Source of the DNA: a virus
IMG/VR virus record: IMGVR_UViG_3300009285_000033
Location: 1 to 37,637 of that record
Direction: 5' to 3' (one strand)
DNA length: 37,637 bases
Positions 2,142 through 27,739 of the stretch are shown here, piece by piece. The first letter of the stretch is position 1. Each line of letters opens with the position of its first letter. The notes beneath the pieces are model-generated. The model saw only the letters and a program-made list of their open reading frames with translations, did no database searches and was not told the origin of the DNA. The translations under genes and the position numbers were made by a program.

Positions 2142-3452
2142 ATGAAAGAAACACGCCCCATATCTGAATTAAAATCTTGGGAAAACAACCCCCGATCAAT
2201 CGACAAGGAGAACTTCGGTCGCCTCCGCAAACAAATCCAACGCTTGGGTCAGTTTAAACCACTTATTATTACCTCTGATGGCACCGTTATCGGTGGAAAC
2301 ATGCGCCTTGAAGCTATGAAATCTCTAGGCATGTCCAACGCTTGGGTCAGTTTAATTGAGTTCAAAGAGCGAGAGGATAAAAAGTGGTTTGCTTGTATTG
2401 ACGGAGTGGCTCAAGTGGGAGAGTTTGAATCTTTGGAACAGGCGGTGACTGAGTACGCTTTAAGTGACAATGATCGTGCCGGATCCTACGATGAGGATAA
2501 ATTAGCCGAGCAACTTTCCAAGTTACCTCAACTAGAAGATATTTATCGATTTGATTTGGGAAAACTCACAAACATAAAAGAACTGATGAGTCGATACGGG
2601 CCGGATCTCAAAGAGGACGAGTTTGATGGATCCTTACCCGACGAACCCAAGACAAAAATGGGGGACGTTTATCAACTTGGTTACCATCGACTTATCTGTG
2701 GTGACGCTACCGATTTTGGTGCAGTACAGAAACTCATGGATGGTAAGACCGCACGGATGACGTTTACCGATCCCCCCTACAATGTTGACTACGCCGGAGG
2801 TATGCACTCGGATGGTACTCAGACAAAGAGAAAGAAAATCTTAAACGACAAAATGAGTCCTGAAGAGTTCTACCAATTCCTCTACAACTCACTAGGAAAT
2901 ATGATCGCGGTCACTAAAGGGGCGTTCTACGTCTGCATGTCCTCGTCCGAGCTCCACAATCTTTGGAAAGCATTTACGGACAACGGAGGACACTGGCAGA
3001 GTTATATCATCTGGGCCAAGGATGCCTTTACTCTCTCTCGTGCTGACTATCAACATCAAATGGAACCCATCCTCTACGGTCTATCAGAAGAAGAATTGAA
3101 GAAAATCACGGAAGAGAATGGAAATATTGAATCTATGCCTATCTTGTACGGCTGGACAGAGCATGAGTGGTACGGTGGAAGAAAACAAGGCAACGTGTGG
3201 AATATAGCTAGACCTAGAATCTCAAAGGAACACCCTACAATGAAACCTATTGAGTTAGTCGGAAGAGCCATCAGAAACTCGTCGCTTGTCGGGGACATCG
3301 TCCTAGATCTGTTCGGCGGGTCCGGCTCCACTCTAATCGCGGCAGAACAAACGGGAAGAATTTGTTATATGTCCGAACTTGATCCTGCCTATTGTGATGT
3401 AATTGTCAGAAGGTGGGAAACCTTAACCGGCGGAAAGGCTAAACTAGTATGA
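2142..3452 (+). CDS. ParB-like nuclease domain / DNA N6-adenine or N4-cytosine methyltransferase fusion
   Basis: N-terminal ENNPR...GGNMRLEA (ParB-N like); C-terminal HRLICGDATD, FTDPPYN (motif IV) then LDLFGGSGSTLIAAE (motif I), the beta-class order. Confidence 0.9.
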   Translation: MKETRPISELKSWENNPRSIDKENFGRLRKQIQRLGQFKPLIITSDGTVIGGNMRLEAMKSLGMSNAWVSLIEFKEREDKKWFACIDGVAQVGEFESLEQAVTEYALSDNDRAGSYDEDKLAEQLSKLPQLEDIYRFDLGKLTNIKELMSRYGPDLKEDEFDGSLPDEPKTKMGDVYQLGYHRLICGDATDFGAVQKLMDGKTARMTFTDPPYNVDYAGGMHSDGTQTKRKKILNDKMSPEEFYQFLYNSLGNMIAVTKGAFYVCMSSSELHNLWKAFTDNGGHWQSYIIWAKDAFTLSRADYQHQMEPILYGLSEEELKKITEENGNIESMPILYGWTEHEWYGGRKQGNVWNIARPRISKEHPTMKPIELVGRAIRNSSLVGDIVLDLFGGSGSTLIAAEQTGRICYMSELDPAYCDVIVRRWETLTGGKAKLV

Positions 3453-10087: not shown

Positions 10088-10459
10088 ATGATCAAATCAA
10101 GAAACATCGATCCCGAAGCAGGGAGATGGAGCGAACCGATTAAACTAGCTTCGTCCACAACTGCTTCTTTTGCGTTCCATAATCCGACGGGTCACAAGAT
10201 CCTAGTCGATGAGATTGTTATCAACGTCACCACGGCCGCCGCTTCTAAATTCCTCTCCGCAGGAGTTATTGCCGCCGCTACTGCTACCACAGCCACCAAC
10301 GACATTGTTAGTGCCGGTGCTCTGGTAACTGGTCAGGTGCTACACATTGACAATCCTACGACTGTTGCCAAGGATTCCTACATCGTGGGTACTCTTAGTG
10401 CCACCGATGCCACTCTAGACGCTTATGCGTACATCCACTACAAAGAATTAACTCTGTAG
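10088..10459 (+). CDS. hypothetical Ala/Thr-rich virion-module protein
   Basis: 123-aa ORF after the capsid gene, ends in tandem stops TAG TGA. Confidence 0.6.
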   Translation: MIKSRNIDPEAGRWSEPIKLASSTTASFAFHNPTGHKILVDEIVINVTTAAASKFLSAGVIAAATATTATNDIVSAGALVTGQVLHIDNPTTVAKDSYIVGTLSATDATLDAYAYIHYKELTL

Positions 10460-10505: not shown

Positions 10506-10982
10506 ATGAAACAATTACCAGCAACAAAATTAACCGCGAACGACTCAGCCGCTAAGGAGGAACTCGGTCGCGTCCGTTGGGAGGGTGGCAAAGCCTATCG
10601 CTATATTCTAGTGGAGGACCAAGCCCTAGCCGTCGGAGACGTTGTTGAATTTTCAGACACAACTGGATACGAAGTATCTAGTGATCGTTCAGGTGGAGCT
10701 TCCATCGGGAGGGTAGTTGCGGGTGTCGCCATTGGTACATTAACTGACGCTTACTACGGTTGGATTCAGGTATCAGGACGAAACGCGTCGATTAAGACGG
10801 ATGGTGGAGTAAGTGCCGGAGATGCACTTATCCCCCACGCTACAGTCGATGGACGCGCTGACACAGGCACGACCGCTTCTACAGTGGTCATTACTGTGGG
10901 TCAGAAATTCGCAATGGCTCTTGAGGCCGATGATGGCACAACCACAGCAGGAACATGCGCAGGCATGATCATGTGTTTGTAA
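10506..10982 (+). CDS. hypothetical protein, possible capsid decoration/cement protein
   Basis: 158-aa ORF with upstream GAAGGTGA Shine-Dalgarno; Gly/Ala/Val-rich beta-type sequence; function only positional. Confidence 0.55.
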   Translation: MKQLPATKLTANDSAAKEELGRVRWEGGKAYRYILVEDQALAVGDVVEFSDTTGYEVSSDRSGGASIGRVVAGVAIGTLTDAYYGWIQVSGRNASIKTDGGVSAGDALIPHATVDGRADTGTTASTVVITVGQKFAMALEADDGTTTAGTCAGMIMCL

Positions 10983-10998
10983 AGTCATAAACAAATTG

Positions 10999-11026
10999 GG
11001 ACTCGGTTAATTACGGGTCCTTTTTT
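10999..11026 (+). terminator. rho-independent terminator
   Basis: GGACTCG/CGGGTCC 7-bp stem (one G-U), 8-nt loop, TTTTTT. Confidence 0.7.
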
Positions 11027-11042
11027 GGTATATGATATGGTC

Positions 11043-11051: not shown

Positions 11052-11095
11052 ATGACACTCTTGTACAAACTACATCAATCTGATAAGTTTAATCA

Positions 11096-11431
11096 ATGGA
11101 TGACTTTACTCTATCAGCGCCGGTAAGTATTTTGTTTGATAGTGATCCTGTTACTCCTGTTGACGAGAAAGAGAATGGTTTCGATCTTAAGTTCCACAAG
11201 AAAAACAATATAGGAAATGGATACCGTGGCTACTACTGGAAATGGTTTGATTCCTTTAAAGACTACTACTTCACTCCACCCCGAGAAAATCTAGAGCTTC
11301 CCACTTCAAACGAGTTTGAACACTCCTTTAGAATCGCTCGAGCTCTCTATCGCGATGGGTATTTGAAGAATATCGACATTGTTGAGGAGTTTTACGCTGT
11401 CATGGAGTTAATAATTAACTCAAATAAATGA
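11096..11431 (+). CDS. hypothetical protein, first gene of the glycan operon
   Basis: 111-aa ORF; ATGA-coupled to the downstream genes. Confidence 0.6.
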   Translation: MDDFTLSAPVSILFDSDPVTPVDEKENGFDLKFHKKNNIGNGYRGYYWKWFDSFKDYYFTPPRENLELPTSNEFEHSFRIARALYRDGYLKNIDIVEEFYAVMELIINSNK

Positions 11432-11526
11432 AAGCCTACGAAGAATACGCTGACGCGGGTGAGGGTAACAACTGGTTTATTTGGGTTGTTTTGGCATTGA
11501 TTATTCTTTACTTTATTCTGAGATGA
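11428..11526 (+). CDS. 32-aa single-pass membrane micro-protein
   Basis: MKAYEEYADAGEGNNWFIWVVLALIILYFILR, read by hand and below the ORF-track cutoff; ATGA overlaps at both ends (11428-11431 and 11523-11526). Confidence 0.5.
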   Translation: MKAYEEYADAGEGNNWFIWVVLALIILYFILR

Positions 11527-13466
11527 AAAAGATAAATATAGGCATCGGAATCCCCACTCCTCCCATTGTTGACGCCAATTTCGCTCTGGGAAATCTACAA
11601 ACTCTACTATCATACACTCGTGAGAATTTGAAAGACTTGGGGGTCATAACCGTGTGCTATCAGGCTGGAGTACGCACCGATCGCAATCGTAATATCATCT
11701 TGGACAAATTTATTGAGTCTGGGGAGAAAGGCACTCGCTTTGATTATGTACTTTGGCTTGATGCCGACATGTTGTACCCCAAGGATATGATCTGCAAATA
11801 TCTAGAGGGTGATTTCGACGTCATGGGATGCCTCTACTTCAAGCGCGCGGATCCTTACGCTCCTATTGCTTTCATCAAAGGTAAAAACCCCCTCAAACCG
11901 TTTAAACCTCTCAATCCCCTCACTATTGACGAGGACAAGGTCTATGAGGTTGACGGTTTGGGTTACGGGGGAATGATGGTCAACATGAAAGTCTACGATA
12001 CCCTTGGAGACGAGAAGTGGACTCTATACGGTTCTAAATTTCACCTACCTTACGAATCCATCGACCACCTCACTCACGATCTTGTTTTCTGCCGGACGGT
12101 CCAACAGTACGGCTTCAAAGTCATGATGCACGGAGGAGTTCGTCCTGGTCACATTGCCGACAAAGTTGTCACCATGAAAGACTGGATGGCCTACAATCCC
12201 GAAGCAATCAACGAGTTTTACGAGAAAAAAGTCAAAGAAAGCGGCAGTACCACCCTAGTCGTTATCCCCTCGAAGAACAAAAACCCCGACATGAAACTTG
12301 TCAACCTGCTTCTCAACCGTTCAGGTATGCCGGATCCAATGACTAGAGTCAACGTTTTACACCAATGGGACAAAAAAGGAGATGGGTATCATGCTACTTT
12401 CAATCGTGCATACCTAGACAATCCTGGTTATGATTACTACGTTTACGTGGCAGACGATGTCTTTCCTGGTCGTAACTGGCTACTTCAGGGATTAAAAGCC
12501 ATGCACATCAAAAACGCCGGACTCTGTATTCCAAATGATGGCAAATGGAATGGGGAGATTGCTACCTTTGGTATTATTAGCCGACCGTTCATTGAGACTT
12601 TCGGAAGTGTCCACAAAATTGATGGAAAGTATGTCACCGTTCCCTTTAATCAAGACTACAAAGCAAATTATGGGGATATGGAGTTGACCGTCATCGCCAA
12701 AGCAACTGGAAAGGCTGTCTATGAGCCATCTTGTGTCCTTACCGAGGTAGATTTTGACAAAGACACCAAGAAAGGTCACGCTGATGATAAATTGCTCTTT
12801 GAGAGGCGACGTCGTACTGGTTTTGAGGGTAGAGTCGGAGATCAAGGTCTACTATCTAAGTACCAGCAGATACAAGGCGACCTAGAGCCCTTACAGTCGG
12901 TCGGTGTGCCTGAGTTCACGACTGATTGGTTTACTAAAAATCTCCCATCGTGGGTAAAGTACATCTTGCCCCACCTTTTGGAACAAAAATCACCTCATAC
13001 TCTAGAAATTGGAACTTATGAAGGAAGATCTGCTTATTTTATTCTCGATGCCGTTCCCGAGACTTGGGTTACTACCATTGATCCCTTTACTGGTTCCGGC
13101 TATCTCCCTATGATTGATGTCAAAGAGAGATGCTACCGAAATCTCAAGCATTTTGGAGAACGTGTCGTCATTCTCGATCAACCGTCTGCTGAGGTGCTTC
13201 CAGCCATGACTCCCGATCAGTTTGATTTTGTCTACGTTGATGGACTCCACACTTACGAATCTTGCAGGTTCGATATAGAGAATGCCTGGCCTTTACTAAA
13301 AGACGGAGGAATTATGTGTGTCGACGACTACCTTTGGAATCGTGCAGATGTACCCTCTCGTCCTAAAGAAGCCATTGACGAGTTTCTAGGGGCTCACAAA
13401 CCAGAACTTGAGATTTTATTCAAGGATTACCAAGTAATTGTCAAAAAACTATGTCCGAAAAAATAG
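11523..13466 (+). CDS. trifunctional fusion: two GT-A (family 2-like) glycosyltransferase domains plus C-terminal class I SAM-dependent methyltransferase
   Basis: GIGIPT...DYVLWLDADMLYP (DxD); second VVIPSKNK...YVYVADDVFPG; C-terminal LEIGTYEGRSA...TIDPF...YVDGLHTYE...LLKDGGIMCVDDY (Methyltransf_24/O-MT like). Start taken at ATG 11523. Confidence 0.75.
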   Translation: MKKINIGIGIPTPPIVDANFALGNLQTLLSYTRENLKDLGVITVCYQAGVRTDRNRNIILDKFIESGEKGTRFDYVLWLDADMLYPKDMICKYLEGDFDVMGCLYFKRADPYAPIAFIKGKNPLKPFKPLNPLTIDEDKVYEVDGLGYGGMMVNMKVYDTLGDEKWTLYGSKFHLPYESIDHLTHDLVFCRTVQQYGFKVMMHGGVRPGHIADKVVTMKDWMAYNPEAINEFYEKKVKESGSTTLVVIPSKNKNPDMKLVNLLLNRSGMPDPMTRVNVLHQWDKKGDGYHATFNRAYLDNPGYDYYVYVADDVFPGRNWLLQGLKAMHIKNAGLCIPNDGKWNGEIATFGIISRPFIETFGSVHKIDGKYVTVPFNQDYKANYGDMELTVIAKATGKAVYEPSCVLTEVDFDKDTKKGHADDKLLFERRRRTGFEGRVGDQGLLSKYQQIQGDLEPLQSVGVPEFTTDWFTKNLPSWVKYILPHLLEQKSPHTLEIGTYEGRSAYFILDAVPETWVTTIDPFTGSGYLPMIDVKERCYRNLKHFGERVVILDQPSAEVLPAMTPDQFDFVYVDGLHTYESCRFDIENAWPLLKDGGIMCVDDYLWNRADVPSRPKEAIDEFLGAHKPELEILFKDYQVIVKKLCPKK

Positions 13467-13711
13467 GGAGAGAATTAAACACAAACGAAACTGTCAAATT
13501 TAGACAGGAAGCGGATAACAAAAGCGTGGTATTCTCGATTGAGAAACTAATTGAGGGCAAGAACAGTGCTGAGGAGGTTGAGGTGGCATTTACGATGATT
13601 TTGGAAGCCTTGGAGAGAGAAAGCACCAAAGTTATGAACAAAAGACTACCTCAGACAGTTAACTACACTAAAGATACTTCGACAAATTATCCATTTGAAT
13701 TTGAAGCATGA
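13451..13711 (+). CDS. hypothetical protein
   Basis: 86-aa ORF overlapping both neighbours within the operon. Confidence 0.55.
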   Translation: MSEKIGRELNTNETVKFRQEADNKSVVFSIEKLIEGKNSAEEVEVAFTMILEALERESTKVMNKRLPQTVNYTKDTSTNYPFEFEA

Positions 13712-13851
13712 AAATAAAAACAGCCGTAGGAATTACCGCTCTTTTGTTTGCCTCTTTTGGGTGGTCGCTATTGGGATTTACTAACTGGAGGATTGCCATC
13801 GCCGTCTTTTTCATCATTTGGAGTAATAACTTAAATAACAAACTAAAATGA
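13708..13851 (+). CDS. 47-aa two-helix membrane micro-protein
   Basis: MKIKTAVGITALLFASFGWSLLGFTNWRIAIAVFFIIWSNNLNNKLK, read by hand; ATGA overlaps at both ends. Confidence 0.5.
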   Translation: MKIKTAVGITALLFASFGWSLLGFTNWRIAIAVFFIIWSNNLNNKLK

Positions 13852-14771
13852 AAACAATCGGAGTCACAGGAAGTTCGGGATTTATAGCCACACACGTCAT
13901 TGACGAGTTGGTCAAGAGAGGCTATCGTGTCGCTGGATTTGATAGAAAATCTGGCCTTATAAACGAAAAAATAGGCGAGTTTTTTATGGGAGATATTCGT
14001 GACGCCGGATCAGTTGACGAGTTTGTCCGAAATTGTGACGGGGTGATCAATCTGGCCGGACTTCTGGGTACTACCGAGGCTGTCGACGATCCACTCCCTG
14101 CCGCCCAGACAAACATATTCGGAGGTCTGAACTTCCTCAACGCTATCCGCAAGTACCAGAAACCAGGGGTACAGATCGCCGTAGGTAATCACTTTGAGAA
14201 CAACACTTATTCTATTTCCAAGACCACTATTGAGAGATTCGTCCTCATGTACCAAAAAGAGCACAACGTGCGTGTACTTGTTGTCAGGGGATTGAATGCT
14301 TATGGCCCTGGCCAACATCACAAACCTATCCGCAAAATTACTCCAAATTTCGTCACTCGTGCTCTCAGAGGTGAACCCATCAAGATTTATGGTGATGGAG
14401 AGCAAGTTATGGACATGATCTTCGTCAAGGATTTGGCCTCTATTCTAGTTTCGGCTCTTGAGATGGCTGAGTCACACAAAGACCTTGGTGGTGTCATTGA
14501 AGCCGGTACAGGACGCCACACAACCGTCAATCAGATCGCAGAAATCATCAGCCAAGAGGCCGGCAGACTAACTGGTAATGTTCAATCTTCCCCTGACCAC
14601 GTTCCTATGCGCGCCGGCGAATCTGAACACGCTGTCGTCGTTGCTGACCCCAAAACCATACCCGTATCGTTCTATAAAAATCTACCTAACTATCACCTGA
14701 CCGATCTTGAGGTTGGGATGAAAGAGACTGTAGAATGGTATTTTACTAATTACGACTACAAAAATGATTAA
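13848..14771 (+). CDS. NAD-dependent sugar epimerase/dehydratase (extended SDR)
   Basis: N-terminal GVTGSSGFIATHV Rossmann motif, YSISK (YxxxK) catalytic motif, 307 aa. Confidence 0.85.
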   Translation: MKTIGVTGSSGFIATHVIDELVKRGYRVAGFDRKSGLINEKIGEFFMGDIRDAGSVDEFVRNCDGVINLAGLLGTTEAVDDPLPAAQTNIFGGLNFLNAIRKYQKPGVQIAVGNHFENNTYSISKTTIERFVLMYQKEHNVRVLVVRGLNAYGPGQHHKPIRKITPNFVTRALRGEPIKIYGDGEQVMDMIFVKDLASILVSALEMAESHKDLGGVIEAGTGRHTTVNQIAEIISQEAGRLTGNVQSSPDHVPMRAGESEHAVVVADPKTIPVSFYKNLPNYHLTDLEVGMKETVEWYFTNYDYKND

Positions 14772-14991
14772 AATAGAGAAAGGACTACTGTTAAAAGTTA
14801 CTACTATCACCGAAGAGGAAACGGTTGCCAAAAAAGGAAATTTATGGATAATACTTGAGATTATTGGCGATGTTGTCTGTATTCAATCCCAAGAGGATCT
14901 GGCCGACAAATATGGCAATATCAACGAGCTATTTTGGATGCGTAAGTCCGAGTTAGAAACCAACCCTAACCTAGAGATAGTTATCGAATAA
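14764..14991 (+). CDS. hypothetical protein
   Basis: 75-aa ORF overlapping the epimerase stop. Confidence 0.55.
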   Translation: MIKIEKGLLLKVTTITEEETVAKKGNLWIILEIIGDVVCIQSQEDLADKYGNINELFWMRKSELETNPNLEIVIE

Positions 14992-14992
14992 A

Positions 14993-15484
14993 ATGGGAAT
15001 TTTCATCCCCAGACAAGTATTTGCTAGTGCTCTTTTTTCCAAGCACTTCCCTCCGGCAATCTCCATGAGGTTCCAGGTTTTAAAGGATTCGGAGATCTTC
15101 AAACCATCAGAGGACGAGGGGACGTGGAATCGTGTCAAAGATGGTACTGAAAACTGGCACATTCTTTTTGACATGGTAGAGATCATGGAAATTGTCCAAA
15201 CCCAAAGGCTGTCAAATGAAATTATTGAGATTATCTTTTTGAGGAATTTCGCTGATGCTATCCGGCGCGGAGTAGTCAGCATAGACAAACTTCCTGACCT
15301 CGTCACAACCGAGGAAGCAAGGCGTTCTGCCAACAAAGTCAAAGACTCCAAGGCTAAAAAACGACATGAAGATGTGGTAGAATCATATAAGTACGCTCTT
15401 AATAATCCCTTGTCTGTAGAGCAATCAATGAGCATGATCAAGGGTAAAAAGAGAAAAGAGTTTAAATTAAAACCAAATGTCTAA
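14993..15484 (+). CDS. hypothetical protein
   Basis: 163-aa ORF starting 1 nt after the previous stop. Confidence 0.55.
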   Translation: MGIFIPRQVFASALFSKHFPPAISMRFQVLKDSEIFKPSEDEGTWNRVKDGTENWHILFDMVEIMEIVQTQRLSNEIIEIIFLRNFADAIRRGVVSIDKLPDLVTTEEARRSANKVKDSKAKKRHEDVVESYKYALNNPLSVEQSMSMIKGKKRKEFKLKPNV

Positions 15485-15719
15485 AATAAAAACAAGAGAG
15501 GAGTTGTTGATTGAGTATAGGAATCAAATTGCACTAAGACAACTTTCCTACGAAGCAAGCGCCATCTACTTCAAAAATAGATCCAAAAAATGTAAAACCA
15601 ACTCCCAAGAAGCGGTCGATGCCGTCAACAATTTTTCGACAAACGATCACAACGCCAAATTAGATCGAGACTTCTTGAAAAACATTGACTTAATGATTGA
15701 GGAATCTATTAAAATTTAA
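15477..15719 (+). CDS. hypothetical protein
   Basis: 80-aa ORF overlapping the upstream stop. Confidence 0.55.
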   Translation: MSKIKTREELLIEYRNQIALRQLSYEASAIYFKNRSKKCKTNSQEAVDAVNNFSTNDHNAKLDRDFLKNIDLMIEESIKI

Positions 15720-15727
15720 TAAAAACT

Positions 15728-15943
15728 ATGAACGAATCAAACGTTCCAGGTACCAAAGAGGAAAAGTTAGAAGCCCTTAGAGCACAAGCTCTCAGAAAAG
15801 GTCGCGAGTTCAACGAAGCGGATACCAAGGAAATGCTCGGAATAGTCGACGCTCCAGTTGTCGTGTCCGAACCCGAGGTTGTCAAGTCAGTTGTAAAGTC
15901 GGCCAAACCCAAAGTTTCCAAGGGTAAAATCGGAAAAAAGTAA
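15728..15943 (+). CDS. hypothetical Lys/Glu-rich protein
   Basis: 71-aa ORF in the + array. Confidence 0.5.
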   Translation: MNESNVPGTKEEKLEALRAQALRKGREFNEADTKEMLGIVDAPVVVSEPEVVKSVVKSAKPKVSKGKIGKK

Positions 15944-15963
15944 TTATTATTTAATCAAAACAC

Positions 15964-16383
15964 ATGCCAGGAGTCACACAGCCCACAGAATACCCAGGTA
16001 AATACGAGGAAAAACTTGAGGCAATGGTAGCCATTGCAAAAGAGAGACGCAGAGGCAAACTCAGCTCAAAAACCGAAGAAGAGTACAGAGTGATCTGCAA
16101 ACAGGCTTTAATTATCGAAGCTGAGGACAAAATTGAGTTCTCGTTACGAGGAGAGATCCGCAGAGGACGCCATAAGAAGCTCGGTGTAGATGAGCAAGAG
16201 TTCTCCGGCCTTTGGAGAAAAAAAATGAAAGCTCGTCTTGAAAAAGATGGTTTTCCATTCTCTCTCAGTAAAGAAGAAACTGCTACCCTTGAGAGACTGA
16301 AAGAAGAGGCAACTGCCAAAAAAGTGGCTGAAATGACCAACATGGCCGCTGAAACTCTTAAGAAGATGATAACGACCGCGTAA
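15964..16383 (+). CDS. hypothetical highly charged protein
   Basis: 139-aa K/E/R-rich ORF ending in triple stops TAA TAG TGA. Confidence 0.55.
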   Translation: MPGVTQPTEYPGKYEEKLEAMVAIAKERRRGKLSSKTEEEYRVICKQALIIEAEDKIEFSLRGEIRRGRHKKLGVDEQEFSGLWRKKMKARLEKDGFPFSLSKEETATLERLKEEATAKKVAEMTNMAAETLKKMITTA

Positions 16384-16386
16384 TAG

Positions 16387-16395
16387 TGATATACT
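16387..16395 (+). promoter_or_regulatory. extended -10 element TGATATACT
   Basis: Begins at the third tandem stop codon; lies upstream of terminator 16418-16440. Confidence 0.35.
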
Positions 16396-16417
16396 AGTCT
16401 AGAAGTCACAATCAACT

Positions 16418-16440
16418 GACCTGCGAAAGCAGGTCTTTTG
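16418..16440 (+). terminator. rho-independent terminator
   Basis: GACCTGC-GAAA-GCAGGTC perfect 7-bp stem, GNRA loop, TTTT. Confidence 0.8.
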
Positions 16441-16459
16441 TTAATAATTACTTACTAAA

Positions 16460-16720
16460 ATGACAGGAAGACCAACTTACATCGCGACGAATACCACAAC
16501 CCTAGTAATGACTGGCCCAGGTAAACTGTGGAGAATTATTCTTGGTGAAACAGCCGCAGGCGCTATCACCATCTACGACGCCCTGACTGCTACTGGTACT
16601 GCTAAATGTGTATTAAAAGCGTCTATTGCTGAGGGAACTTACGAGTTTGGTATGGAGTTCAAGACAGGTCTGACCATCGTTACTGCCGGTGCTTCTAAAT
16701 TGACTGTAATCACAGGATAG
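16460..16720 (+). CDS. hypothetical small virion-module protein
   Basis: 86-aa Thr/Gly/Ala-rich ORF. Confidence 0.55.
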   Translation: MTGRPTYIATNTTTLVMTGPGKLWRIILGETAAGAITIYDALTATGTAKCVLKASIAEGTYEFGMEFKTGLTIVTAGASKLTVITG

Positions 16721-16799: not shown

Positions 16800-16824
16800 G
16801 GTCACCTAGCGGTGGCCTTTTTTT
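16800..16824 (+). terminator. rho-independent terminator
   Basis: GGTCACC-TAGC-GGTGGCC stem (one G-U) followed by TTTTTTT. Confidence 0.75.
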
Positions 16825-26300: not shown

Positions 26301-27739
26301 CCCGATCGGACTTCGTCAACAGACTTTCAAGTGTTGATGAACTTGCCAAAAACGCCGGTAAGAAATCCTTTGGACTATCTACTATTCCAGACAAAATTCA
26401 ATCATTTTACGGAGGAACCGATGATATTTACAAAGTCGCGGCGTTCAAGTCATTACTTGACCAAGGCAAGACTCTAGATGAGGCTACAAGGTTGGTTGCG
26501 GATGGATTTCAAAACTACGCCAATGTGGGTAAATTCTACGATGTATGGGCAAAGACTCCTGTGGTCGGATCTGCTTTTATAAAATTCCAGGGAGATTTAA
26601 TCCGCATCATCAAGAATGCCGTTGTTAACCGTCCTCTCCAACTAATCACTTTCCTGGCTACTCTCAAAGGTGTGGCCGAACTCTCTAGTAGAGTATCAGG
26701 AGAGAGTCCACAGGACAAAAAGACTCGTGAGGAAAGATTCGCCGCTCCCATGATTCCTGGTCTTAACATTCCTCTCACTTGGCAGACACCTTTCGGGGAG
26801 ATAAACGTCGCTCGCTACATCTCACCGTTCTACGCAAACAACGATGTAACTGATACTGGAAAGATGATACCTGGTTTGGGTACCGCAATGGCCGTCGCTA
26901 AAGACGCATTTTCACCCAATCCTGATTTTGCCTCTACGATTGCCAAAAATGTTAACGATCCCCTGCTCTCTCCGGCCGTTCAATTACTCGTTAATAGAGA
27001 TTTCAGGGGTAAACGTATCTCCGATCCCAACGAAAATAAGTATCAGCCCTCTACTCTTACCTCCGGCGAAAAACTTGCCAATCAAGCAAAATTCCTTACT
27101 CGAAGTTACTCTCCTCCACTCGTTAATACTGGTGTGGATATTAAAAACGCCGCCGCAGGTGAACCCGACTACTACGGACGAACAAGAAGTGTTCCACAAG
27201 CGGCCGCCAGAGCCGCCGGTATAAAGATTGAACAGTTTGGTCCGGCCGAAGCCCAGAAACAAAGAGAAAAAGACGCCACCTACGAAATGCTCGACACCAA
27301 AGGAAATCAATCAAATATCAGGCAGGTATTCAACGATGTCTACGATAATAATTTACCCTTTGAGACAGCCCTAAAAAGAATCAAAGAAATATCCTCATCC
27401 GCCGGAGGAAATAGAGAGGTTGCCGAGGGGCTCCATTCAAAAATAATGTCACTTCCTAAAGAAGACCGAGCCTCTGCCTACCAAAAAGCCTCCAAATATC
27501 TCTCGGAAGACGTCAAAAATGAAATGCTTGCTATCTCAAAAATGGAAGCTCTTGGTCTATCCTCGGAAGACAGACTCTTGCTCACCATTCCAGTTGAACT
27601 TCGTGCCCAACAGGTTCACGCCAGAATCATGGCTCTCAGTCCTAAATCAAGAGCTAAAAAATATCAACAGTTGGTTGATGGAGGGGTAATCACTCCCGAG
27701 ATGAAAAATCTCATGCTAAAATTACTACAGGGTAAATAA
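23378..27739 (+). CDS. giant (1453 aa) internal virion / DNA-ejection type protein with an ADP-ribosyltransferase-like module
   Basis: Largest ORF. The N-terminal third has Gly-rich hydrophobic segments. Residues from about aa 445 read YLYHTTSPKNIQSIAEQGLKPGKGQYGKAVYMAP. Function by size, position and motif. Confidence 0.5.
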   Translation: MANRLVDALLKAKKKAEDLAKSAYQNVFQTNKPSKGMISPVESTVYHDTPITKNIKTAASVVGGGLKQIGNYAGDIYQGGKATTKLVARAILPDKITEQNLSRQRALTEAMAIARKKGNTEAVKNIYKSAQGAYKDTTSYLDSQNSQNLDLLRKQQKGVITGGSMVLGGPKLLTKTGAVSSLLGGGINAAVAKFQGGNAPEEFGRGVIKTVPVLAMSRFTDPVITKAAGSISPQLSPAVIQAVRRVITGAGNVGEGKILSKMNQTGYSPKDAAIDFATGAVVSPKANEELGGIIKKGLKGTQEDLIKKVANFLKKNPEISAKEPVKLTERIRAVKVTENGQPMPDIMVKDNQATRRGTNQYSTKYKDFVPAGGAGTKQELNAIGGVAGIEYEKDENGKITGVKYDPAKGAAGFALMAGVTSPQGKKLTKDILEKVVSASKGADGDYLYHTTSPKNIQSIAEQGLKPGKGQYGKAVYMAPKPEMTGGYGSPEGAMLRIKKSGLSGLQEFPDQSWSPNKVDSKNIEVSIDNGKSWKPLSPQGVEGTSINTPRSKVELEAGKTPPKLQTEVPVTSKVLPESLPPIVQPKKVTPESVASELPTKINNFVQNTLGYSTANPVGGTKEASAYTKVLRKGQSVVTRGVEKALGSENAKVRTAASTIQGFFKGIGTSPERAQASTELRGGIAVGNERAYNVMDSLYGALDNNKKSLERINAVLDPKISKFKLSYDDLTPKEQKVHDLIRNGFDLVHDTSFANGHIDESLYTKNKGKYVPRLYQPFELPEEVNKFVNSSTKKVQTDLYKSRTDINDWKTDASLNDPVYALGKRLAQVETNTAIKNYTDFLAKNPNLVSEVEKPGFVKLSDSKAYGSLSGKYVLNSAAEELKGHFFANAGLQNVYDAFRSFDRLPIRQLQKKLLTVFNPTTNVGNIVSDNVFGFMTGVDPLTLNKNIVSLTKNKSSYKQLSDYLMKVGVTGTDITRSDFVNRLSSVDELAKNAGKKSFGLSTIPDKIQSFYGGTDDIYKVAAFKSLLDQGKTLDEATRLVADGFQNYANVGKFYDVWAKTPVVGSAFIKFQGDLIRIIKNAVVNRPLQLITFLATLKGVAELSSRVSGESPQDKKTREERFAAPMIPGLNIPLTWQTPFGEINVARYISPFYANNDVTDTGKMIPGLGTAMAVAKDAFSPNPDFASTIAKNVNDPLLSPAVQLLVNRDFRGKRISDPNENKYQPSTLTSGEKLANQAKFLTRSYSPPLVNTGVDIKNAAAGEPDYYGRTRSVPQAAARAAGIKIEQFGPAEAQKQREKDATYEMLDTKGNQSNIRQVFNDVYDNNLPFETALKRIKEISSSAGGNREVAEGLHSKIMSLPKEDRASAYQKASKYLSEDVKNEMLAISKMEALGLSSEDRLLLTIPVELRAQQVHARIMALSPKSRAKKYQQLVDGGVITPEMKNLMLKLLQGK

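Follow-up and report, generated by a model that had tools for sequence, protein, structure and literature searches.

A candidate virion-glycosylation cassette, built around a dual glycosyltransferase–methyltransferase fusion, in the head-gene block of an uncultivated groundwater podophage

IMG/VR virus record IMGVR_UViG_3300009285_000033 is a viral DNA of 37,637 nucleotides (positions 1 to 37,637 of the record, one strand, hereafter the window), in which we analyzed a cluster of seven open reading frames (ORFs) at 11096-14991. The main finding of this study is that this cluster contains two sugar enzymes—a fusion of two glycosyltransferase (GT) domains with a methyltransferase (MT), and an extended short-chain dehydrogenase/reductase (SDR)—which, on balance, we judge probably to form an accessory cassette, embedded in the head-gene block, for the cytoplasmic glycosylation of virion proteins. 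The source is an uncultivated podophage whose portal and adaptor are of the SU10 type. Profile searches identified in the window a large terminase, a portal, a major capsid protein (MCP; PHROG 9953) and an SU10-type adaptor, as well as an amidase endolysin and ERF/YqaJ recombination proteins. Groundwater metagenomes hold near-identical contigs of 37.6-38.5 kb, while GenBank phages contain no DNA match to the cluster region. The seven ORFs had been described in a first-pass annotation, made by a model from the sequence alone, as chained by ATGA or short overlaps, and the coordinates and junctions that we re-derived are all as placed there:

11096-11431 (+), g111, 111 amino acids, ATGA junction with p32
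11428-11526 (+), p32, 32 amino acids, ATGA junction with the fusion gene
11523-13466 (+), GT/GT/MT fusion, 647 amino acids, 16-nt overlap with g86
13451-13711 (+), g86, 86 amino acids, ATGA junction with p47
13708-13851 (+), p47, 47 amino acids, ATGA junction with the SDR gene
13848-14771 (+), SDR, 307 amino acids, 8-nt overlap with g75
14764-14991 (+), g75, 75 amino acids, 1-nt gap before the next ORF

To call the whole chain a sugar operon, as the annotation did, is too broad; of the seven products, the fusion and the SDR alone are sugar enzymes.

The fusion is the centerpiece of the cassette. The mechanical ORF opens at TTG 11481, and we place the start at ATG 11523, which agrees with the N termini of its homologues (MKKINIGIGIPT or MINIGIGIPT). 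It divides into three domains:

11523-12242 (+), domain 1, amino acids 1-240, GT-A, from PHROG families, alignment, model and Foldseek
12246-12905 (+), domain 2, amino acids 242-461, GT-A, from a separate domain model and Foldseek
12945-13466 (+), domain 3, amino acids 475-647, class I S-adenosylmethionine (SAM)-dependent O-methyltransferase, from Methyltransf_24

That the protein joins two GT-A-like domains to a class I SAM methyltransferase had been proposed at first pass and is borne out by the AlphaFold model, Foldseek and Methyltransf_24; the LDADM and VADDV motifs cited with it lie at amino acids 79-83 and 309-313. The AlphaFold (AF2) model, built on 50 homologues, has a mean pLDDT of 90.8, exceeding 95 over amino acids 1-240, and its sole disordered stretch is the linker at amino acids 457-473. 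When the whole model was compared by Foldseek with the PDB, the first match was K4CP, a chondroitin polymerase with two GT-A domains, followed by MeT1, A197, Mnn9 and LARGE1. For domain 1, PHROG glycosyltransferase families match amino acids 16-240, the Foldseek matches are K4CP, STIV A197 and Mnn9, both aspartates of the DxD motif (D80 and D82) are invariant in the alignment of 50 homologues, and there is 27.6% identity to the glycosyltransferase gp11 of mycobacteriophage Baka. Domain 2, modeled alone with a pLDDT of 95.3, finds only glycosyltransferases among the 50 PDB matches listed by Foldseek (E ~1e-6 to 4e-5, probability 1.0, query-normalized TM-scores of 0.43-0.60), including WrtF, ppGalNAc-T2, RmlT and TarP/TarS. 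Its D312 is nearly invariant in the 50 homologues, with a variable preceding residue (D, Q or E), and falls on the TDD motif of SpsA in a sub-threshold alignment. Domain 3, of the cation-dependent O-methyltransferase type, matches Methyltransf_24 with an E of 1e-20 (75 bits against a cut-off of 26.3), carries motif I as EIGTYEG at amino acids 495-501 and is structurally closest to MeT1, then to Rv0187 and CCoAOMT-like enzymes, the CCoAOMT type also being found by PDB sequence search. MeT1 is a mannoside 1-O-methyltransferase (PMC9883506).

The family searches that the first-pass annotation had proposed gave a divided answer, with matches to Methyltransf_24 in the fusion and to Epimerase in the SDR and none to GT2. 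A Pfam scan of the 647-amino-acid protein returned no GT family at E up to 0.1, PF00535 (Glycos_transf_2) included, NCBIfam has no match to either GT domain, and PDB sequence and profile searches with the fusion matched the methyltransferase part alone, with SpsA and KfiA sub-threshold. Precomputed PF00535 or PF03452 matches exist for some fusion homologues. Because there is no PF00535 match above the gathering threshold, we file the fusion, and domain 1 in particular, under the GT-A fold and not under GT2; these GT domains, invisible to Pfam and NCBIfam, were recognized through predicted structures. Neither the fusion nor the SDR has a hydrophobic window at transmembrane level, and both are predicted to be soluble.

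The second enzyme had been read as an extended-SDR epimerase/dehydratase from its GSSGFIA and YSISK motifs, which we find at amino acids 8-14 and 121-125, and this placement agrees with a strong match to Pfam Epimerase (E 4.6e-39, 134.7 bits against a cut-off of 20.9) and with PHROG 540 (E 3e-54). Its closest solved relative is 6wjb, which we take to be PelX, a UDP-GlcNAc 4-epimerase. Against the NCBIfam equivalogs it scores far below the cut-offs (RmlB, 110.6 against 365; LegB, 96.5 against 475; GalE, 68 against 262). The stretch from strand β5 to the Tyr counts ~9 residues (VGNHFENNT) against the usual ~25, i.e., ~16 fewer, and alignments to RmlB, UXS and GalE start only at ENNTY (ENNTYSISK). 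The protein thus reads as an extended SDR of atypical active site, whose specificity is not assigned to one equivalog. Amino acids 105-125 (QIAVGNHFENNTYSISK) have the same sequence in all phage homologues (related loci L001, L003 and L004).

The next line of evidence is the genomic setting, which couples the fusion to a small gene that we named g158:

10506-10982 (+), g158, 158 amino acids, always flanked by the major capsid gene and the dual GT

The dual-GT family comprises at least 120 clusters, mostly proteins of 410-430 amino acids without a methyltransferase, on contigs of ~36-41 kb; the MT fusion is found in only five of these clusters, and in other members domain 1 is joined straight to a methyltransferase. 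The order MCP, g158 homologue, GT recurs in ~25 divergent loci, that is, in every one with enough flank, and holds down to ~30% MCP identity. What follows the GT in these relatives varies: separate Methyltransf_24 or Methyltransf_11/25 genes, a GT4 with a cytidylyltransferase, an RGP-family protein, or one or two SDRs. In locus L031 (7962-12075), a stand-alone domain-1 GT precedes a full dual GT, and two different SDR genes come next; the cassette therefore differs between relatives not only in its content but also in how many domain copies it has. We considered whether the L031 GT had been split by an intein or homing element and rejected this, a separate domain-1-only GT preceding the full dual GT. 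HNH_3/HNH homing-endonuclease genes do lie at or beside the cassette in L014 (2711-3121, minus strand), L025 (9614-10114) and L017 (14777-15307), and two GT homologues of ~740 amino acids (P0108 and P0109) carry a LAGLIDADG_3 domain; the GT cassette attracts selfish elements. When the search was started from g158 instead, g158 proved to accompany the capsid gene as a core component across a broader clade, with the GT cassette present in one part and absent elsewhere, so the cassette is accessory.

We rank g158 as the leading candidate for the glycan acceptor. Its family spans at least 371 clusters and lacks a Pfam domain throughout, and 7 of 22 members match PHROG 29386, "virion structural protein." A PDB profile search with the family found nothing, Pfam gave sub-threshold matches only, and GenBank phage proteins include no counterpart. 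The C terminus of g158 has Thr/Ser-rich loops (TGTTASTVV and DDGTTTAGT). Over the C-terminal ~42 residues, members from GT-carrying phages have a mean of 10.5 Ser/Thr (25%), whereas the nearest group without a GT averages 5.5 (14%) and distant groups without one average 4.9, and many of the GT-carrying members have an extra S/T-rich insertion of the STVVN type. This roughly twofold Ser/Thr enrichment in GT-carrying phages is the reason for ranking g158 first, and we regard it as suggestive. The neighboring virion proteins singled out by the first-pass annotation (the ORFs at 10088, 16834 and 19744) are themselves 21-22% Ser/Thr.

Comparison with characterized systems places the cassette between two precedents. 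The nearest in domain architecture is A064R of chlorovirus PBCV-1, a 638-amino-acid GT/GT/MT protein that adds two rhamnoses to the N-glycan of the capsid protein Vp54 and methylates the terminal one (PMC9614988). Like the fusion, A064R is a soluble, virus-encoded protein of ~640 amino acids in which a GT-A domain with a DxD motif, a second GT and a class I SAM O-methyltransferase follow each other in this order. It differs in that its domain 2 belongs to a new cation-independent GT family, whereas domain 2 of the fusion has the GT-A fold and a conserved Asp, and in that its host is eukaryotic and its glycan N-linked; the shared architecture is most likely a convergent assembly of domains. Foldseek also aligned a 638-amino-acid viral protein, M1IF74 (no name in its tables), along the whole fusion model with an E of 1.9e-14 and 14% identity; this protein is presumably chloroviral, judging by its accession series, and at most a candidate A064R orthologue. 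Phmmer and profile searches of the PDB with the fusion listed no chlorovirus glycosyltransferase chain; the PDB contains a structure of A064R domain 1.

The nearest precedents in gene arrangement are actinobacteriophages, namely, Che8 (cluster F), Corndog (cluster O) and Baka (cluster J), which likewise encode GT-A enzymes, joined in clusters O and J by an O-methyltransferase. A Che8 glycosyltransferase matches the fusion in Foldseek (E 2.2e-11), and the capsids of Che8 are reported to be glycosylated in two papers that both cite Freeman 2023 (PMC11600133, PMC11256854). In Baka the gene order is MCP, a GT related to domain 1, a kinase, an MT, several GTs and a head-tail connector, so that its cassette sits exactly between the major capsid gene and the connector. 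The cassette described here has the same layout of a virion-glycosylation cassette, with phage-encoded GTs and an O-MT beside the capsid genes. The differences are that the actinobacteriophages are siphoviruses of Actinobacteria with separate single-domain genes, while here a three-domain fusion and an SDR occur in a podophage clade without a cultured member, the cassette is anchored to g158 and glycosylation is a prediction.

Taken together, these features would be consistent with the following sequence of events. Transcription of the cluster would occur late, downstream of a leaky terminator at the end of the abundant head genes. The SDR might convert a host nucleotide-sugar to a phage-specific donor, for example, a 4-epimer or a 4-keto/6-deoxy sugar, a reaction compatible with its family. 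The two GT-A domains, identified by fold and motifs, could act one after the other, each transferring a single sugar either to a Ser or Thr of a virion protein or onto the sugar already placed, after which the C-terminal O-methyltransferase would methylate the terminal sugar and leave a capped glycan. The likeliest acceptor would be the Thr/Ser-rich C-terminal loops of g158, with the capsid protein or other Ser/Thr-rich virion proteins as alternatives.

The first-pass annotation had offered two roles for the enzymes, glycosylation and methylation of virion proteins or remodeling of the host surface glycan, and we favor the first because of the position after the capsid genes, the solubility of the enzymes, the Baka-like layout and the A064R-like order of domains. 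Several points weigh against it. A glycan on virion proteins is here a prediction from genes and modeled structures. The GT-A fold matches are generic and include the wall-teichoic-acid and capsule enzymes TarP, TarS, RmlT and K4CP, so the class of acceptor cannot be read from structure. Host glycans lie outside the comparison. The alignments reveal no identifiable catalytic Ser/Thr in the SDR segment before YxxxK, its usual place, so that any reaction proposed for the SDR is tentative. Finally, the Ser/Thr correlation in g158 is confounded by phylogeny, and loci L119-L127 have an equally similar g158 yet no GT, so the pairing of g158 with a GT is not obligatory.

The three small ORFs interspersed with the enzymes require separate consideration. 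p32 and p47 do have ATGA overlaps at both ends, as first noted, and four of the genome's 11 ATGA junctions flank them. Their description as almost purely transmembrane does not hold for p32, whose first 14 residues are polar or acidic and precede a single hydrophobic helix; p47 has two hydrophobic segments and is a predicted small membrane protein. We compared their in-frame codon usage with that of stop-free antisense windows of equal length, only 0.2% (p32), 1% (p47) and 14% (g86) of which reached the same level. This supports p32 (p ~0.002) and p47 (p ~0.01) as putatively coding, and g86 weakly so. All three are singletons at 90% clustering. p32 fills a strain-specific insertion of 95 nt and g86 and p47 share another of ~380 nt, and all three are missing from L001 (90% identity), L015 (72%) and L003 (69%), in which g111 abuts the GT and the GT and SDR genes overlap by ATGA. 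p32 is missing from L004 too; in L001 and L004, g111 overlaps the GT start directly. Other relatives have other inserts, an unrelated 61-amino-acid ORF in L004 and, in L014, an HNH gene at the first junction and an unrelated 75-amino-acid ORF plus a Cys-rich 36-amino-acid micro-ORF at the second. The latter (L014 5279-5389; MKTKPGCTICGRRPKRYCLDKGQQVCKKHYKKGDAK) occupies the position of p47, with ATGA at both ends and an unrelated sequence, and weakly similar peptides are encoded in L039 and L040. The inserts of different relatives show no homology to each other, and a search for repeats or ends resembling miniature inverted-repeat transposable elements around the insertions gave only short chance-level matches. 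Near-identical contigs were uninformative about polymorphism, being 99.97-100% identical, with a lone variant (L008) that is a scaffold gap of Ns.

Homology searches separated the three. g86 retrieved only itself from 5.8 billion protein clusters, and GenBank phage proteins include no match to p47 or p32. p47 has four homologues of 47-53 amino acids (E 2.7e-5 to 5e-4) that share the motif NW[KR]IAI.VF.IIWSNN and are encoded on unrelated phage contigs, not adjacent to GT genes; a lysis-cassette context for them was considered and dropped, their neighborhoods being uninformative. p47 belongs to a small but real mobile family of small membrane proteins, and the two gene junctions are insertion hotspots whose inserts are kept in a translationally coupled register. 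p32, g86 and p47 are probably genuine small genes, brought in by insertion at these junctions, with the ATGA register perhaps maintained so that translation passes on to the downstream enzyme gene. We consider it rather unlikely that they are instead chance frames in inserted spacer, or "relay" frames for ribosomes with inert peptides. That g86 is an ORFan, that none of the three is conserved in the closest relatives and that unrelated inserts all keep the ATGA register, as if coupling rather than peptide were selected, would fit such an explanation, which is countered by the phage-like codon usage of p32 and p47 and by the four length-matched homologues of p47 with their conserved motif. Either way, p32, g86 and p47 take no part in the glycosylation chemistry. 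The argument from the membrane micro-peptides to an envelope-associated step thus falls, since they lie in insertions lacking from the closest relatives, are replaced elsewhere by unrelated inserts and, in the case of p47, have homologues away from GT genes. There is a general caution in this, since very small ORFs that are tightly coupled to their neighbors may have entered a gene junction recently as mobile insertions, without belonging to the surrounding pathway.

The loss of this argument bears on the possibility that the enzymes glycosylate and methylate a polymer of the host envelope (teichoic acid, lipopolysaccharide or capsule), blocking superinfection or preventing adsorption of progeny to debris, with the membrane peptides as tethers or helpers. 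Two predicted membrane peptides are indeed present in the cluster, the top match of the whole fusion is a capsule polymerase, K4CP, and the structural neighbors of domain 2 include TarP, TarS and RmlT, which glycosylate wall teichoic acid. The prophage enzyme TarP and the serotype-converting Gtr systems are also phage-encoded GT-A enzymes that alter glycans. However, theirs is the envelope polymer of hosts infected by temperate phages, and Gtr needs membrane proteins, whereas the enzymes here are soluble, without a transmembrane segment or lipid-carrier module, and are encoded in the head module. No flippase, Gtr-type membrane protein or integrase was found among the ~45 window ORFs scanned (the cluster and most of the larger ORFs elsewhere). 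The membrane peptides are those missing from the closest relatives, with p47 homologues not adjacent to GT genes, and throughout a wide clade the cassette keeps its place inside the late head module, where and when conversion of a host surface would be odd. We therefore regard host-envelope remodeling as unlikely.

Still less probable is that the two GT-A domains alternate, as in K4CP and LARGE1, to make a repeating polysaccharide, free or attached once to a protein, whose length is set by an O-methyl cap. K4CP and LARGE1, the best full-length structural matches, are bifunctional polymerases with two tandem GT-A domains in one polypeptide, and MeT1, the nearest methyltransferase structure, caps a methylmannose polysaccharide (PMC9883506). 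In Baka, a kinase and a methyltransferase adjoin the GTs. The pairing of these two activities recalls chain terminators of the WbdD type. However, K4CP and LARGE1 produce repeating disaccharide chains, lack a methyltransferase domain and superpose poorly (TM ~0.2); the TM-scores for K4CP are only 0.21-0.25, with a root-mean-square deviation of ~17 Å, so that domain content alone matches. Furthermore, A064R, with the same three domains, adds just two sugars (PMC9614988), and no export system is present. As for hypermodification of phage DNA, in which the GTs would decorate modified bases and so evade restriction, it is very improbable, for although phage GTs are classically DNA-modifying (PMC12619734) and the genome has a ParB-fused N6/N4 DNA methyltransferase, there is no hydroxymethylase, thymidylate-synthase-like or other base-modifying enzyme among the ORFs scanned, the cassette lies in the head and not the replication module, and its methyltransferase is of the sugar/catechol O-methyltransferase type.

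The cassette for virion glycosylation, as we read it, is set in a unit with recognizable boundaries. The first-pass annotation located the cluster between capsid-accessory and tail genes, which is correct on the capsid side; tail genes do not follow directly, six small ORFs (14993-16720) intervening before the adaptor gene at 16834. Nor is translational coupling a peculiarity of the cluster, since 24 of the 55 junctions in the genome overlap, 11 of them by ATGA. Around the cluster we find:

10998-11027 (+), terminator-like hairpin with T-run, directly after g158, between the abundant head genes and the enzyme cluster
14993-16383 (+), four small conserved ORFs (163, 80, 71 and 139 amino acids), inside the hairpin-bounded unit
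16418-16441 (+), terminator-like hairpin closing the unit, after the 139-amino-acid ORF
16800-16817, third terminator-like hairpin, before the adaptor gene

The 163-amino-acid ORF has no Pfam match. The positions of the three hairpins, at 10998-11021, 16418-16435 and 16800-16817, are kept in L001 and L003, with compensatory changes in the stems; the counterparts of the hairpin at 10998 lie at L001 783-806 and L003 9443-9464, and those of the hairpin at 16418 at L001 5493-5510 and L003 14553-14572. They delimit a unit of ~11096-16383, which holds the enzyme genes and small ORFs, and set it apart from the head genes before it and the tail genes after it in the late region. The conservation of hairpins at these three points, presumably as terminators, suggests that transcripts of the abundant head genes reach the enzyme genes by read-through. 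g111 shows 30-57% identity to counterparts in L001, L003, L004, L014 and L015, has none in distant relatives by tblastn and matches nothing in Pfam or PHROG. g75 comes after the cassette in all close relatives and, in L025, directly follows the GT even though that phage has no MT or SDR, for which reason we take it to be a conserved backbone gene and not a sugar enzyme.

Other features of the genome were recorded in passing. Most plus-strand gene starts (e.g., 11076-11095 and 13828-13847) have A/T-rich upstream sequences (…AAATAAATG and …CTAAAATG) with no Shine-Dalgarno motif, which suggests a host that initiates translation without one. Metagenome-assembled genome bins are too widely spread to assign a host (Anaerolineales, Patescibacteria, Bacteroidaceae, Epsilonproteobacteria and Nanoarchaeota), and those of the relatives include two Patescibacteria/CPR bins. 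A 313-amino-acid ORF at 33918-34859 (+) encodes an IS1595/ISXO2-type DDE transposase domain (E 5e-43) and a zinc ribbon, adjoins the stretch of lowest GC content in the genome (0.31-0.37, ~32-34 kb) and may be an insertion sequence or a domesticated transposase within the phage genome. A protein of 1453 amino acids (23378-27739, +), with weak matches only, to LPD38 (E 4.5e-4) and a PARP catalytic domain (E 0.053), probably serves as a large internal or ejection protein. The ORF at 2142-3452 (+), immediately ahead of the terminase genes, joins a ParB-like nuclease domain with an N6/N4 DNA methyltransferase (PHROG 498, E 3e-120), and in the tail region a 275-amino-acid protein (20776-21603, +) has a Gly_rich_2 domain (E 1.4e-25).

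The points of interest in this phage are an A064R-like fusion, a conserved pairing with g158, a variable tailoring island and a possible enzyme–acceptor pair. The finding also has a lesson for annotation, which is that GT domains missed by Pfam and NCBIfam can be recognized via structure prediction. In the literature that we cite, phage virion glycosylation is on record for mycobacteriophages alone, in which it changes recognition by antibodies. If the cassette glycosylates the capsid, this trait would reach a large clade of environmental podophages without a cultured member and would come with a defined candidate acceptor family (g158), a compact enzyme of three activities and a natural series of cassette variants showing how phages diversify their surface glycans. 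More tentatively, this widespread groundwater and freshwater clade may possess an O-antigen-like, hypervariable glycan island whose place in the head module is fixed, anchored by g158 and the dual GT-A protein, that yields strain-specific, methyl-capped capsid glycans, and in this phage a GT/GT/MT fusion may have arisen independently of A064R. Were that so, glycan coats on virions would be a trait of phages in general, extending beyond Actinobacteria and beyond the context of the immune system, and in aquifers such coats might serve adhesion, stability or as a decoy.

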